A stretch of 42,479 nucleotides of DNA, taken from positions 1-42,479 of the IMG/VR virus record IMGVR_UViG_3300048576_000489. One strand, written 5' to 3'. Under the pieces are notes generated by a model. It was not told where the DNA came from, ran no database searches, and worked only from the letters and a program-made list of their open reading frames with translations. Below, one piece after another: positions 26,006-32,422 of this stretch. Source of the stretch: a virus (lineage: Duplodnaviria; Caudoviricetes). The position numbers were made by a program, and so were the translations under genes. Each line of letters opens with the position of its first letter. The stretch's first letter is position 1.

Positions 26006-27319
26006 ATGCCTGACGCCCCCGACCTGTCCTTCGCCCTGGGCCTGCCGCCCGAACGGGCCATCAGCTACTTCAAGGCCAAGGGCTATGAGGTCGCCTTCGA
26101 CTGGCACGAGATGCTGGCCGACGCCCACGCCCGGGCCTTTACCGTGGCCAAGGCCACCCGACTGGACATCCTCGCGGATATCCGGGGCGCCGTGCAAAAG
26201 GCCCTCGATACCGGCACGACGCTGCGCCAGTTCCAGAAGGATCTGACGCCGCTGCTCCAATCCAAGGGCTGGTGGGGCAAAAAAGAGATCGTTGACCCAC
26301 GCACCGGCGAGGTGCGCCGGGCCCAGCTCGGCAGCCCGTGGCGGCTGAAGACCATCTACGAGACGAATCTGGCCACGGCGTATGCCGCAGGCCGCTACCG
26401 TGAACAGATCGAGAACGCCGAGGCCCAGCCGTACTGGATGTACGTGGCCGTGATGGACTCCCGGACCCGGCCCGGACATGCGGCCTTAAACGGCAAGACC
26501 CTGCGCCACGACGATCCGTTCTGGTCCTCGTTTTATCCGCCCAACGGCTGGAACTGCCGCTGCCGGGTGCGCGCCCTGACCCCCGAGCGCGTGCGCCGCA
26601 AGGGCACCAAGGTCGAGACCTCGGACGGGCTTGTCAGCCACGAGGACGTGGCCGTGGCCCGCGACGGCCGCACGGCCCGCATGGCGATCTACAGCAACCC
26701 CAAGACCGGCCTCCGCGTGCAGACGGACCCGGGCTGGGCGCACAACCCGGGCAAGTCCTGGCCCCTGACCGACCGCAACGGGAGGTTGCCGGATTGCACG
26801 GCCAGCTTCGCCGAAGGGGCGGAGAAATGCGTCAAGATGCTGATGGGGCAAAAGGACTGGAAGGCTTACGGCCGCCCGGACCTGCGCACCGTGCCGGAGG
26901 GGCAGCGTCAACCCGCGCCCGGGTTGTTGCCCGCAGGTAAGACCCGGCCGGAGGCCGAGGCGATCCTGGCCCGGGCGCTGGGGCTGGACAAGCGACCCTT
27001 GATCGAGGTGGCCACGCCCATCGAGCGCGTTTATCTCAAACGCGAGCTGCTGGCCCACTTGGTCGAAAAGCCCGAGAACGCCCGTGAGCGGTACGCCAAT
27101 TTCATCCTGCCCACGCTGCAACGCCCGTTCGAGATCTACCGAACCGAATACGAGGACGGCTTCCGGGACCGCTACGTCGGCTTGTTCACGGGAAAGTACA
27201 ATCTGTTGACCGTGGCCAGGATCAACAAGGACGGCAGTGTGCTCTGGAACGTCATGAACGTCGAGGACAAGCGGATGAACAAGCAGCGCGTGGGGGAATT
27301 GCTGTACCCGAAGAAATGA
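26006..27319 (+). CDS. MuF minor head protein with C-terminal PBECR-like nuclease extension
   Basis: RLKTIYETN, YVAVMDSRTRPGH, YPPNGWNCRC, then an extension with RERYANFILPTLQRPFEIY...KQRVGELLY. Confidence 0.9.
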   Translation: MPDAPDLSFALGLPPERAISYFKAKGYEVAFDWHEMLADAHARAFTVAKATRLDILADIRGAVQKALDTGTTLRQFQKDLTPLLQSKGWWGKKEIVDPRTGEVRRAQLGSPWRLKTIYETNLATAYAAGRYREQIENAEAQPYWMYVAVMDSRTRPGHAALNGKTLRHDDPFWSSFYPPNGWNCRCRVRALTPERVRRKGTKVETSDGLVSHEDVAVARDGRTARMAIYSNPKTGLRVQTDPGWAHNPGKSWPLTDRNGRLPDCTASFAEGAEKCVKMLMGQKDWKAYGRPDLRTVPEGQRQPAPGLLPAGKTRPEAEAILARALGLDKRPLIEVATPIERVYLKRELLAHLVEKPENARERYANFILPTLQRPFEIYRTEYEDGFRDRYVGLFTGKYNLLTVARINKDGSVLWNVMNVEDKRMNKQRVGELLYPKK

Positions 27320-27926: not shown

Positions 27927-27957
27927 AAAACGGCCCGCCGGTTTCCCGGCGGGCCGC
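27927..27957 (-). terminator. Intrinsic terminator, copy 1 of a 30-bp direct repeat
   Basis: 11-bp stem with a GAAA loop and TTTT on the minus strand, between convergent genes. Confidence 0.8.
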
Positions 27958-27979: not shown

Positions 27980-28210
27980 TCATCCCTTCGGGGGGCAAGG
28001 GTCCGACCCGTAGGTTCGTTCCTCGCGGAACTGACCGTTCGTCCCTTGGATACGAACCGACGTGTTGCCGTGGCTGATTCCACGGTCCCGGGCGGTGTCG
28101 ATGGCGTCCGCCTGGGTGCTGTGGATGCTCGAGACCCGCGACGCGCCTTCGCGCCGGACCGCCCACCCCTGGGGATGGTTCACGACGTACAGATTGTCTT
28201 TTTTCGACAT
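27980..28210 (-). CDS. DUF2188 family protein
   Basis: YVVNHPQGWAVRREGASRVSSIHSTQADAI...GQFREERTYGSDPCPPKG. Confidence 0.9.
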   Translation of the reverse strand: MSKKDNLYVVNHPQGWAVRREGASRVSSIHSTQADAIDTARDRGISHGNTSVRIQGTNGQFREERTYGSDPCPPKG

Positions 28211-28231
28211 GGTTTTGCTCGCTTGTCAGTC

Positions 28232-28269
28232 AAAAGGATAAAGAAATGGGGCGATCCGCAGATCGCCCC
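28232..28269 (-). terminator. Intrinsic terminator after the small peptide gene
   Basis: Perfect 9-bp stem GGGGCGATC/GATCGCCCC followed by ATTTCTTTATCCTTTT. Confidence 0.7.
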
Positions 28270-28283
28270 GCCCTCGCCAAAGG

Positions 28284-28364
28284 TTATCGCCGGACCTTGA
28301 CGGTCCGCACGATACGCACGATCCGAACGGTGCGCCGAAAACGCACAACACGAATTGTCGGCAT
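28284..28364 (-). CDS. Unannotated 26-aa Arg/Val-rich peptide MPTIRVVRFRRTVRIVRIVRTVKVRR
   Basis: AAGGAG RBS 8 nt before the ATG, TAA stop, terminator 14 nt downstream. Confidence 0.68.
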   Translation of the reverse strand: MPTIRVVRFRRTVRIVRIVRTVKVRR

Positions 28365-28393
28365 GTGACTCTCTCCTTTGGGGGGACAAATCC

Positions 28394-28421
28394 TTGACAG
28401 ACTAGCGGGGCAATGTATAAT
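28394..28421 (+). promoter_or_regulatory. Consensus sigma70 promoter TTGACA-N16-TATAAT, antisense to the cassette
   Basis: Perfect -35 and -10 hexamers read directly from the sequence. Confidence 0.72.
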
Positions 28422-28427
28422 GAGAGT

Positions 28428-28550
28428 TTGTGAAGGCTCTCACATTATCATCGCCGACCCGGCCAGCAAGGCCCCGTCCGGCCCCCCGTTCGTCGGGGAA
28501 ATTTGAAAGCCCCTTCAGCGTTCCAGCGCTGTGGGGGTTTTCATTTTTTT
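28428..28550 (+). ncRNA. Candidate ~120-nt small RNA
   Basis: Lies between the consensus promoter and a hairpin (28506-28540) with a T-run; no ORF. Confidence 0.42.
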
Positions 28551-29140
28551 ACCAATCCAATTATCCGTAAACGCTCACGTACAAACGCTGGGTTAACATT
28601 GAAAATACCCGCCAAAGTATAAATTGTTACCCCTTGTCCATAATAATGCTCCATGAGATGCTTCGGCATCAACATGGCTCCCCCCAATGTCCATGCCTGC
28701 CACTCCGGGTCAAGATAAGCAGGAATATCATGTCGTTTTGCACGATATAGCTGACTCCCGTCGGCAAGGATGGATTTGAAGAAGCTCAACACCGGGATAT
28801 GCAGAACGCAGTGTGCGCTCTCATGGGCAACTGTTGACCGGAACAATCTGTGGCCATTTTCAGTCTCATCATCTATAAGTTTTGAATGTACAACGCTTGT
28901 CATTGAAGAAGCATCTGTGTACCCATAGACACCACCTCCAAGGACACTTAAATCTCGATAGTCTGTAACAAGACTGTTTAGTCCGCTCATTTTTTTCAAA
29001 TCAAAATCAAAAATAGCTTCAATATTAACCGGACACTTGCCATTGAAACCATCTGGGTCGAAACGTCGAATAATTTGAGCCGCACGGGCTTCAATCTCAA
29101 CCTTTCGTAAAGGTGGAACAAGTGGTACTCTATTGGTCAT
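28541..29140 (-). CDS. ImmA/IrrE family zinc metallopeptidase
   Basis: RSTVAHESAH (HEXXH) and EWQAWTLGGAMLMP. Confidence 0.92.
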   Translation of the reverse strand: MTNRVPLVPPLRKVEIEARAAQIIRRFDPDGFNGKCPVNIEAIFDFDLKKMSGLNSLVTDYRDLSVLGGGVYGYTDASSMTSVVHSKLIDDETENGHRLFRSTVAHESAHCVLHIPVLSFFKSILADGSQLYRAKRHDIPAYLDPEWQAWTLGGAMLMPKHLMEHYYGQGVTIYTLAGIFNVNPAFVRERLRIIGLVKK

Positions 29141-29507
29141 TCACCTCCCCTCCTAACTCCTTGATAGCCTTTTGGATAGCCCGCGCCCAATCGTCCTCGC
29201 TTGCATGTTCCCCCGCACGATAAAGACCAAAAGCAAGATTCTGATGTTTTCCGAGTGCTTTTTCAAGAAACCCCGCGCCCCAAGCTGTCCTCTCGCGAGC
29301 AGCAAGATCGCGCAATTGCTGAGCATCAAGTCCTAAAACCCTCGCGAGCTTGTCCAAAATATCGGACTTTGCTGGAGGTTTGCGCCGACCGTGCTCGATC
29401 TCCGACAGCAAGCTTGGGGCAACGTCTAACATCTTTCCGAGGTCTCGAAGCGTAATCCTCCTGTCACTTCGCGCCTGGGCGATGATAGCGCCAAACCTGC
29501 CTTCCAT
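29130..29507 (-). CDS. XRE-family HTH regulator
   Basis: ITLRDLGKMLDVAPSLLSEIEHGRRKPP; overlaps the peptidase gene start. Confidence 0.92.
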   Translation of the reverse strand: MEGRFGAIIAQARSDRRITLRDLGKMLDVAPSLLSEIEHGRRKPPAKSDILDKLARVLGLDAQQLRDLAARERTAWGAGFLEKALGKHQNLAFGLYRAGEHASEDDWARAIQKAIKELGGEVNDQ

Positions 29508-29620: not shown

Positions 29621-29650
29621 AAACGGCCCGCCGGTTTCCCGACGGGCCGC
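29621..29650 (-). terminator. Intrinsic terminator, copy 2 of the 30-bp direct repeat
   Basis: 29/30 identical to 27928-27957. Confidence 0.78.
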
Positions 29651-30190: not shown

Positions 30191-30421
30191 TTACGGATTG
30201 CACACCTTGCAGGGCCGGTATCCGGCTTTGATGGCCGCCTCCCGGCTCTCGAAGACCGCCGTGCAGGCATTGCAGTCGTAATACCGGCAGCCCGGCCCAT
30301 GAAAAATATGACTCTGCACGTTGCCGTGATACACCAGCCCCTGGGCCGCCATCGCCATCCCGCCAAGGATCACCGCCAGCAACACGGCAAAAGCCAGCCG
30401 TCGAACATGTCGCACGCACAT
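30191..30421 (-). CDS. Ada metal-binding-like small protein with signal peptide
   Basis: YHGNVQSHIFHGPGCRY...FESREAAIKAGYRPCKVCNP. Confidence 0.85.
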   Translation of the reverse strand: MCVRHVRRLAFAVLLAVILGGMAMAAQGLVYHGNVQSHIFHGPGCRYYDCNACTAVFESREAAIKAGYRPCKVCNP

Positions 30422-30438
30422 AGCCCACCTCGTACTGA

Positions 30439-30861
30439 TTACCAGGTTTTACTGCCGCCCTCATACGGGACGGCCAATCCGGCATCAAGCAACGACCGGC
30501 ACAAATCCTGCCCCTCCACCACAATGTCCGCCACCAGCCGACCGCCGTACTTGTCGCGGCCGACATCCGTCAGCGTCAGGCGCAAGCCCGGCGCGATCCG
30601 GGTCTTCACGAACTCCCGCGCCTCCCGAGCCTTGTCCGCGACCTCGGGCCGCTTGTCCCGCAGCTCCGGCGTGTCGCAGTGCCGCAGGCGGATGGACTGG
30701 TCCCGGAAAAAATCCGGCATCTCTCCCGAAAGCCGAACCTTGACGGTATCGCCGTCCACCACACGGACCACAACGGCCTCGAGATCGGGGCCGGGTTCCC
30801 GCGCCAGGACGGGTCCGACGCATAAGGCCAAGGCGATCAGGCTAAACGCAATATATCGCAT
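30439..30861 (-). CDS. Secreted thermonuclease (SNase family)
   Basis: Signal peptide; VVRVVDGDTV, IRLRHCDTPE and DKYGGRLVA motifs. Confidence 0.9.
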   Translation of the reverse strand: MRYIAFSLIALALCVGPVLAREPGPDLEAVVVRVVDGDTVKVRLSGEMPDFFRDQSIRLRHCDTPELRDKRPEVADKAREAREFVKTRIAPGLRLTLTDVGRDKYGGRLVADIVVEGQDLCRSLLDAGLAVPYEGGSKTW

Positions 30862-31417: not shown

Positions 31418-31669
31418 TTAGGGCCGAGAAAGTCGAAATCCTTGTAGCTCAAAAAGACGTAGTGCTGATCGGCCCATAACCCCTTCCGCCAACCTAGCCC
31501 TGGCGTGTAGGCACCAGGCCGCCTCCATGACATACAGCCGGGCCAGGGCCTCAATGGCCGAGTGAAGGCTTTCCGCGCCGACGAGCCGCAGCAGCTTGTC
31601 GGGCTCTTCCACCGGATCGCACGTATTGACAAGCAATTCGAATCGGTTCATCAAATCTGTCATTTCCAT
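31418..31669 (-). CDS. Hypothetical protein
   Basis: 83 aa; GGAGG RBS at 31678-31682. Confidence 0.5.
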   Translation of the reverse strand: MEMTDLMNRFELLVNTCDPVEEPDKLLRLVGAESLHSAIEALARLYVMEAAWCLHARARLAEGVMGRSALRLFELQGFRLSRP

Positions 31670-31693
31670 GATAAAAACCTCCAGGAGCGATTT

Positions 31694-32422
31694 ATGTTCT
31701 TCATTGATATCCAGTGCCCATCATGCTTGCAGCATCGGGGCATCGTCGCTGCCTGTCTTGGCGAATTCGAAATCGTCCAAAAAGCTCCCCGGACTCGCCT
31801 ACACGTTGACAAAGACATCATCAAGGGAGGCGATATCTTATGTTCTTATGCGGCTGGGAAATGCACGCATTGCGGGAAACCTGTTCTTGTGCATCTCAAG
31901 ATGCCACGGGAGCACTTTTCCAAGGCTATGAACTGCATTGGCAAAGGTGATCTGGAACGTTATACGGGACCACAACCGGAAATCTTGGCTATTTTCCCAG
32001 AACCAAAAGCCGCCTACAGCCATCCCACTCTTCCCGAGGAAATCCGAAAACTCTTTGTGGATGTGCAAGAAACCATCGACCAGGGACGTGATCCGTCTTG
32101 GGTCGCGTCTGGGTGCCGGAAGGTCCTGGAAAACGCCGTGGCCAATCTTGGTGGCACGGGTGGCACGCTTTTCCAGAAGATCGAGGACTTGAAGGCAAGA
32201 AGTATCATTACTGGACTCCTCCTCGACTGGGCGCATCAAATTCGGATGGATGGCAACAATGCCACGCATGAAAACACATACACCCCCGCAGAAACAAAAG
32301 AACTGATCGAATTCGCGAAGATTTTCCTGCAATACACATTTGAGCTTCCCGCTCGTATCTTGGAAAAAAGGAAGTTGATGCCACCATCTCAACCTACACC
32401 AACCGGCATTGATCGTGTTTGA
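31694..32422 (+). CDS. Zn-ribbon + DUF4145 (HEPN-related) protein
   Basis: CPSC/CTHC pairs, CRKVLE, LFQKIEDL and IRMDGNNATH; AGGAG RBS; AT-richer than the flanking phage genes. Confidence 0.85.
   Translation: MFFIDIQCPSCLQHRGIVAACLGEFEIVQKAPRTRLHVDKDIIKGGDILCSYAAGKCTHCGKPVLVHLKMPREHFSKAMNCIGKGDLERYTGPQPEILAIFPEPKAAYSHPTLPEEIRKLFVDVQETIDQGRDPSWVASGCRKVLENAVANLGGTGGTLFQKIEDLKARSIITGLLLDWAHQIRMDGNNATHENTYTPAETKELIEFAKIFLQYTFELPARILEKRKLMPPSQPTPTGIDRV

Follow-up and report, generated by a model that had tools for sequence, protein, structure and literature searches.

A 26-codon open reading frame behind an XRE-ImmA pair of a Mu-like phage, in a predicted antisense-gated slot for small basic peptides

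The XRE-ImmA gene pair of a Mu-like phage is followed on the same strand by an unannotated 26-codon open reading frame (ORF), whose product is an orphan peptide in a conserved slot that is predicted to be antisense-gated and is apparently undescribed. The DNA analysed is a stretch of 42,479 nt (IMG/VR record IMGVR_UViG_3300048576_000489), hereafter the window. Judged from sequence, modelling and analogy, there is about an even chance that the ORF is a normally silenced payload of a type I toxin-antitoxin-like unit, which is double-locked by XRE/ImmA and by an antisense RNA.

Pfam matches to portal, Mu F, Mu G, Mor and GemA genes identify the record as a Mu-like phage. Because the closest named relatives of its DUF2188 protein (72–78%) come from Fundidesulfovibrio, the host presumably belongs to the Desulfovibrionaceae. 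The cassette lies entirely on the minus strand in the order XRE, ImmA-type M78 peptidase, 176-nt leader, 26-aa peptide, hairpin and DUF2188, with a low GC content across the XRE-ImmA part. The XRE-family HTH repressor (125 aa; 29130..29507) is matched by Pfam HTH_31/HTH_19/HTH_3 and by PADLOC capH (E 1.4e-8). The ImmA/IrrE-type M78 metallopeptidase (199 aa; 28541..29140), which overlaps the XRE stop codon, carries its HExxH motif at residues 106–110, invariant across the alignments, and is matched by Pfam Peptidase_M78 (E 6e-4, under the curated cut-off), phrog_87 and, weakly, PADLOC capP (E 6.7e-4). The second payload gene encodes the DUF2188 protein (76 aa; 27980..28210), a member of the PADLOC candidate defence family PDC-S16. 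Two 30-nt hairpins in direct repeat, 97% identical and 1693 nt apart, enclose this cassette of ~1.7 kb, with the left copy (27928..27957) between a Mu gene G-like ORF and DUF2188 and the right copy at 29621..29650. These flanks suggest that a terminator was the site of recombination, or was duplicated, when the Mu-like genome acquired the cassette. A search of the window region against Rfam gave no match at the gathering score. Elsewhere in the window, a Mu F-like head protein bears a fused C-terminal PBECR2 nuclease domain (26006–27319), and the accessory genes at 30191–30861 and 31562–32422 code for an Ada-type Zn-binding protein beside a staphylococcal-nuclease homolog and, in a low-GC gene on the opposite strand, for a DUF4145 protein.

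The minus strand from 28364 to 28284 translates to MPTIRVVRFRRTVRIVRIVRTVKVRR followed by a stop codon, a peptide with nine Arg, one Lys and neither Asp nor Glu, and also devoid of Gly, Ala and Tyr. The Shine-Dalgarno (SD) sequence AAGGAG (28373..28378, minus strand) is separated from the ATG by an 8-nt spacer, and a 9-bp hairpin with seven G-C pairs (28248..28269, minus strand) begins 14 nt past the stop, all of which agrees with the original prediction. The hairpin ends in an imperfect U tail, AUUUCUUUAU. Its folding is strong relative to shuffles (z = -2.97; 1 of 200 as stable), and in a 60-nt folding window it does not lie below all 30 shuffles; it could be a partial terminator, or a processing or stabilising hairpin. 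The DUF2188 start codon lies 73 nt past the peptide stop, and the earlier remark that this gene has no strong ribosome-binding site (RBS) or promoter is borne out, with no SD-like match and no minus-strand promoter predicted there.

Among the 372 ATG-initiated ORFs of 20–60 aa in the whole window, only the 26-codon ORF has an SD match of at least 6 nt. When the 330-nt spacer between ImmA and DUF2188 was dinucleotide-shuffled 3000 times, an SD-led ORF arose in 21 cases and one with the composition of the 26-mer in none, with composition cut-offs that were chosen after the peptide was seen. These chance tests and the positional conservation of the slot support the hidden small gene that had been proposed, and on sequence grounds it is very probably a real translated gene. 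No contig of the sequencing runs examined spans 28291–28452; a 175-nt contig that is exact at 28458–28632 derives from a run guessed to be RNA and says nothing on expression.

The 26-mer is rich in Arg, Val, Ile and Thr. Its best 19-residue Kyte-Doolittle mean is 0.48, which excludes a membrane-spanning toxin, one of the activities first suggested; it contains no transmembrane helix and has no Pfam match. The amphipathy has a period of three residues, with a moment of 0.99 at 120 degrees that was equalled in 3 of 10,000 shuffles, and the two-faced amphipathy of a β-strand was rejected (moment 0.01 at 180 degrees).

To place the ORF among related cassettes, loci were collected with ImmA and DUF2188 queries. 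There were 94 loci with an ImmA-profile match, 88 of them with enough downstream DNA, which reduced to 48 non-redundant loci in addition to the window. An unnamed family of basic peptides of ~40 aa is encoded on the same strand directly downstream of ImmA in 35 of the 48 (27 of 40 once the eight loci used to build the HMM are removed), and these canonical slot peptides start about 100–240 nt past the ImmA stop. The other 13 loci hold weak family members (L138, L159), an apparently frameshifted member (L279), a second basic family (L151, L161), Cys-containing peptides (L052, L102) or DUF2188 itself in the slot (L006, L036, L037), have divergent layouts (L002, L017) or are empty (L103). L151 reproduces the exact window order of XRE, ImmA, leader, peptide, hairpin and DUF2188, and the closest DUF2188 homologs (82%; L026–L028) occupy the slot directly, without an upstream peptide. 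The phages that bear the slot families span very different GC contents. A search of two phyla with the ImmA profile at E 1e-15 returned 1 of 251 and 0 of 251 genomes, a threshold too strict to be informative.

The window ORF is positioned as a family member, 177 nt from the ImmA stop and with the -35 box of an antisense promoter 30 nt away, and its net charge of +10 falls within the canonical range of +2 to +11. It lacks the nearly invariant T, G, A, G motif by which the canonical family is recognised in sequence (alignment A6), and comparison with that family by hhalign gave probabilities of 0.25% and 0.08%, that is, no detectable similarity. The canonical family itself has at least 77 matches among 50%-identity representatives with a single query, a few of them long false hits. 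Its peptide is modelled as a β-hairpin, a short helix and a strand (pLDDT 84.5). The family has no meaningful match in Pfam, NCBIfam or the PDB, where sequence matches are weak; Foldseek and VIA searches with the model found no PDB match and otherwise only uncharacterised phage proteins, and the ESM Atlas returned only unnamed clusters at 0.88 or below. A likeness of the family to the DUF2188 C-terminus is not significant (probability 1.5%), and the best structural match of the DUF2188 model, AcrIF5 (Z 5.2, rmsd 3.2, 60 aligned), is not meaningful.

Genes for a TIR protein, for a Prok-E2_E protein and for the PADLOC defence candidates PDC-S16, PDC-S38 and PDC-S15 are among those that lie 3′ of the slot. 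Slot peptides head arrays with the TIR protein in L273 (2465–3885) and with an FRG/PDC-S15 protein in L104 (4233–5488), and in L279 (2240–3265) the apparently frameshifted canonical peptide is followed by PDC-S38 and Prok-E2_E domain proteins, a link to bacterial ubiquitin-like systems. In four loci (L133, L149, L163, L164) a second unnamed family of basic 39-aa peptides, with its own RBS, begins about 50–80 nt past the slot peptide; its motif resembles the slot peptides of L151 and L161, and it has no Pfam match. DUF2188 comes first in operons divergent from XRE-peptidase pairs, a CapH/CapP-type layout, in L002, L004, L005 and L014, where the same components thus have an alternative arrangement.

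The leader of the window carries an antisense σ70 promoter, TTGACA-16-TATAAT, which matches the consensus at 12 of 12 positions (28394..28421, plus strand). From this promoter a cis-antisense RNA of ~122 nt is predicted (28428..28550, plus strand; z -5.81), which is complementary to the 5′ portion of the peptide leader, without reaching the SD. Its predicted intrinsic terminator, a hairpin with a U7 tract (28504..28550, plus strand), overlaps the ImmA stop codon and weakly matches Rfam ctRNA_pGA1 (E 0.25, under the gathering score). Neither the promoter nor the RNA figured in the original prediction.

Antisense promoters were scored in 43 leaders, omitting those with no slot start assigned (L002, L017, L036, L103, L142, L279). 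A promoter of at least 9/12 occurs on the antisense strand in 27 of the 43 and on the sense strand in 2, where shuffles predict 4.5; in 24 of the 27 the -35 box lies 23–47 nt from the start codon. At a relaxed score of at least 8, 36 leaders were kept (L006, L037, L131, L133, L138, L153 and L273 were omitted), of which 29 have a U-tailed hairpin on the antisense strand and 6 on the sense strand, compared with 9.7 in shuffles. The predicted antisense RNAs span 57–125 nt and end roughly 50–90 nt before the start codon, never over the SD; any control must therefore be indirect. Of the 36 loci, 21 have a comparable hairpin 3′ of the slot ORF, which bears a U tail in 15. Of seven held-out loci, six carry an antisense promoter at the relaxed score (at least 8/12), including that of phage LLS. 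No Rfam family matched at the gathering score over the leaders of 20 loci; the isrK and C4 matches in L161 (6648–6841) lie elsewhere in that prophage locus and are unrelated to the slot. Taken with the folding models, these features make it likely that the antisense gate is real.

An indirect route is suggested by the predicted folds of the leader. In the minimum-free-energy structures of the window, the element CUCUCA (28426–28421) pairs with UGAGAG (28442–28437) when the leader is free and with the SD region once the upstream part is occupied, so that the predicted switch spans 28421..28442 on the minus strand. The cost of opening the SD is 1.0–2.4 kcal/mol in the free state and 6.2–7.7 kcal/mol in the blocked state, a difference no stronger in the window than in shuffled sequences (4/8 and 2/8 as extreme; in a larger set 2–12/30 and 5–20/30). 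Across the 36 loci, when the antisense target is forced to be single-stranded, the RBS becomes costlier to open in 31 and cheaper in none, and the mean cost goes from 9.8 to 14.5 kcal/mol. With eight shuffles for each comparison, the RBS is more open with the native target than with shuffled targets in 29 loci versus 4, and more occluded by the native spacer than by shuffled spacers in 31 loci versus 1, contrasts that in the models are the signature of anti-SD and anti-anti-SD elements. The counts overstate independence, and the P-values are too favourable, because the 36 loci were chosen for a promoter score of at least 8, start codons were assigned by eye and several loci of Firmicutes type are related to one another. 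In 4 of the 6 held-out loci with an antisense promoter, the cost increases by over 1 kcal/mol (the start of L284 was mis-set by 4 nt). Antisense-dependent closure of the RBS is thus a prediction well supported across the family and qualitative alone in this window.

Relatives of the 26-mer itself were sought by several routes. Pfam, PHROGs and PADLOC hold no homolog, and tblastn against 50,697 phage and 72,556 plasmid records found none, with the low-complexity filter on, which makes this a weak negative. Degenerate DNA patterns had no match in the collected loci; in IMG/VR they gave 96 matches with 35 short ORFs, none of them similar, and a further search gave three matches, each within an unrelated long frame. 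Conservation, by which the small gene was to be judged, therefore holds for the position of the slot and not for the sequence of its occupant, for which the sets searched contain no homolog; true orthologs are most likely to be found in Desulfobacterota genomes outside these sets. A contig from sequencing run X1 matches 28147–28270 with 9 differences in 124 positions, beyond which the two sequences part. Hand translation of the 30 unmatched letters shows an ORF end just before the same hairpin with a C-terminus like that of the canonical family, a motif type found in 5 of 101 canonical members and before 0 of 13,209 background stops, although the motif was defined after it had been seen. These 30 letters of one contig suggest that a close relative has exchanged the content of its slot.

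The RNA-plus-peptide unit can also exist by itself: four loci (L275, L276, L278, L284) have a leader, a predicted antisense RNA and a canonical peptide without an adjoining XRE-ImmA pair. Three of the four units carry a sense promoter of their own, ~198 nt upstream, the geometry of a type I toxin-antitoxin locus. Using the peptide as query, we also found the module in LLS, a phage of E. coli K-12 (L283, PQ299149; 981–2135), with XRE (LLS_28), ImmA (LLS_27), an antisense promoter that scores 11/12 and, in the slot, a canonical peptide of 46 aa that has no annotation. The ORF of this peptide begins 124 nt past the LLS_27 stop, and the antisense RNA predicted for LLS measures ~63 nt. The complete module can therefore be tested directly in this phage, which is a ready test system.

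We propose the following mechanism, by analogy with ImmR/ImmA, DdrO/IrrE and CapH/CapP. XRE would repress the operon, and cleavage of XRE by ImmA after DNA damage would send a surge of transcription through the leader. The predicted constitutive antisense RNA of ~122 nt would pair with the upstream leader and, as the folding models predict, refold it so that the first payload RBS is closed. The antisense RNA would thereby set a threshold, passed when sense transcription surges or when the RNA decays; a second trigger may be its decay once an infecting phage shuts off host transcription. Only then would the peptide be produced, and it would probably inhibit growth or act against phages. A polyanion (RNA, DNA or the ribosome) is the simplest target to propose for an Arg-rich peptide, because the slot occupants are unrelated yet strongly basic. 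The toxin reading is favoured because of the antisense-RNA architecture, and the double lock, the stand-alone type I geometry and the defence-candidate neighbours point to a toxic or defensive payload, a proposal that from sequence stands overall at roughly evens. A wider generalisation is more tentative and somewhat doubtful: that modules of a widespread and as yet undescribed class, on phages and mobile elements, use XRE-ImmA and a cis-antisense switch to double-lock exchangeable, small, soluble basic peptides, which would act on nucleic acids or ribosomes as anti-phage effectors or as type I toxins of a new kind; the 26-mer would be a newborn member selected for charge and periodicity rather than by descent.

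The tight linkage of the slot to XRE-ImmA would also suit a peptide that acts back on the pair, as an antirepressor of XRE or a cofactor or ligand of ImmA, restrained by the antisense RNA in a feedback loop and not through toxicity. A small gene under cis-antisense control could also encode a non-toxic regulator, for instance an antirepressor, and small, sequence-divergent antirepressors beside repressors exist, such as the 29-aa AimX described in the available part of 10.1101/2025.11.23.689978. According to the same part of that source AimX proteins are mostly predicted to be helical, whereas the canonical slot family is modelled as a β-hairpin sheet. A ligand of ImmA, one of the roles originally suggested, or of XRE is disfavoured because at least four non-homologous protein types occupy the slot and because peptide-plus-antisense units exist without XRE-ImmA, and we regard a regulatory peptide as unlikely. 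Alternatively, the antisense switch may be real and the 26-mer a newly arrived or decayed occupant of the slot, arising for example from 9-nt duplications, whose translation serves no selected function, with DUF2188 as the functional payload. The absence of a 26-mer homolog from the viral contig, phage and plasmid collections searched, the different peptide that a close relative appears to hold before the same hairpin, and the low complexity and period of three all fit this reading; yet the 26-mer has the strongest SD of the short ORFs in the window, a charge at the top of the family range and synonymous variation of Val and Arg codons among its repeat units (at few sites, and weak), and a functionless occupant seems quite unlikely.

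The lack of an SD or predicted promoter at DUF2188, 73 nt past the stop, and the imperfect U tail of the hairpin would accord with an Arg-rich leader peptide whose translation or stalling governs read-through into DUF2188, as was proposed at the outset. The obligate link to one downstream gene that is expected of an attenuator was not found: DUF2188 homologs occupy the slot without a peptide (L026–L028, L006, L037, L038), slot peptides occur without DUF2188, and hairpins trail slot ORFs regardless of the downstream gene. The Arg codons of the 26-mer are mixed and dispersed, and, unlike typical attenuator peptides, the canonical slot peptides share a fold that is conserved and modelled with confidence. 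A leader peptide is disfavoured because the 82% DUF2188 homologs have no peptide and most slot peptides precede other genes or none, and we consider it very improbable. That the frame is a chance product of the intergenic region and is never translated is scarcely credible: the failure to find a homolog in the sets searched is in keeping with it, but the SD and shuffle tests speak against it, as does its position, which matches the family slot in the distances to the ImmA stop (177 nt) and to the antisense -35 box (30 nt).

XRE-ImmA/IrrE pairs are very common in prophages, and we know of no target for most of them. The predicted, unannotated antisense RNA and the small basic peptides described here point to a hidden third component of such pairs. 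A literature search of titles and the starts of abstracts found no description of the module, although the supplements of small-protein and structured-RNA surveys, or bioRxiv preprints, could already list the peptides or the RNA. The available part of PMC12315714 does not mention ImmA, XRE or a metallopeptidase, and Burroughs and Aravind 2020 may describe part of the module. If the slot peptides are toxic, they would broaden type I toxin-antitoxin systems beyond membrane peptides and add a putative defence family that annotation has missed because of its small size.

Cationic antimicrobial peptides rich in Val, Ile and Arg include the bactenecin derivatives and IDR-1018. The 26-mer resembles them in composition and in its short, basic amphipathic pattern, a compositional likeness alone, and differs in its period-3 amphipathy, the lack of a two-faced β-strand and the lack of an export signal. 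At the RNA level, the antisense RNA sar of phage P22 restrains ant, and plasmid ctRNAs such as that of pSK41 are translational attenuators. The slot shares with both a counter-transcribed RNA that arises within the leader and is predicted to shut the downstream RBS, here by refolding; unlike in those systems, the target is neither Rep nor a known antirepressor, and no Rfam family matches at the gathering score. AimX, as presented in the available part of 10.1101/2025.11.23.689978, is likewise a hidden ORF of fewer than 50 aa with poorly conserved sequence that keeps its position beside a phage HTH regulator, but it is convergent with the repressor, mostly helical, controlled by AimR and binds AimC.

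At the protein level, the cassette shares with CapH/CapP, ImmR/ImmA and DdrO/IrrE an XRE protein and an HExxH M78 peptidase, with DUF2188 or other defence candidates nearby, as far as the available part of 10.1101/2022.04.27.489752 describes these systems. The same part of that work reports that CapH/CapP operons are divergent from the operon they regulate, and credits Burroughs and Aravind 2020 with tying DUF2188 and DUF3892 to HTH-metallopeptidase operons. A third component under the control of the Xre-COG2856 pair is proposed in the available part of PMC2701414. Unlike in CapH/CapP, the window payload is co-directional and downstream, with all four genes on the minus strand, and lies behind an antisense RNA and unannotated peptides.

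In the type I toxin-antitoxin systems hok/sok and ldr/rdl, a cis-antisense RNA is directed against the 5′ leader of the toxin. The slot units share with them an ORF of fewer than 60 aa, an opposite-strand promoter within the leader, a predicted short terminated RNA complementary to the region upstream of the SD and not over it, and the occurrence of some copies alone with their own promoter; at the sequence level, they have the small ORF with a cis-antisense promoter-terminator unit that is expected of type I. They depart from hok/sok and ldr/rdl in that no Rfam or Pfam family matches them, that the slot is exchangeable and that most copies lie 3′ in an XRE-ImmA operon. According to the available part of PMC6563280, the toxins of classical type I systems are hydrophobic peptides of the membrane. 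Unlike the transmembrane helices of the Hok, Ldr, Fst and TxpA class, the slot peptides are predicted to be soluble, basic and of β-type.
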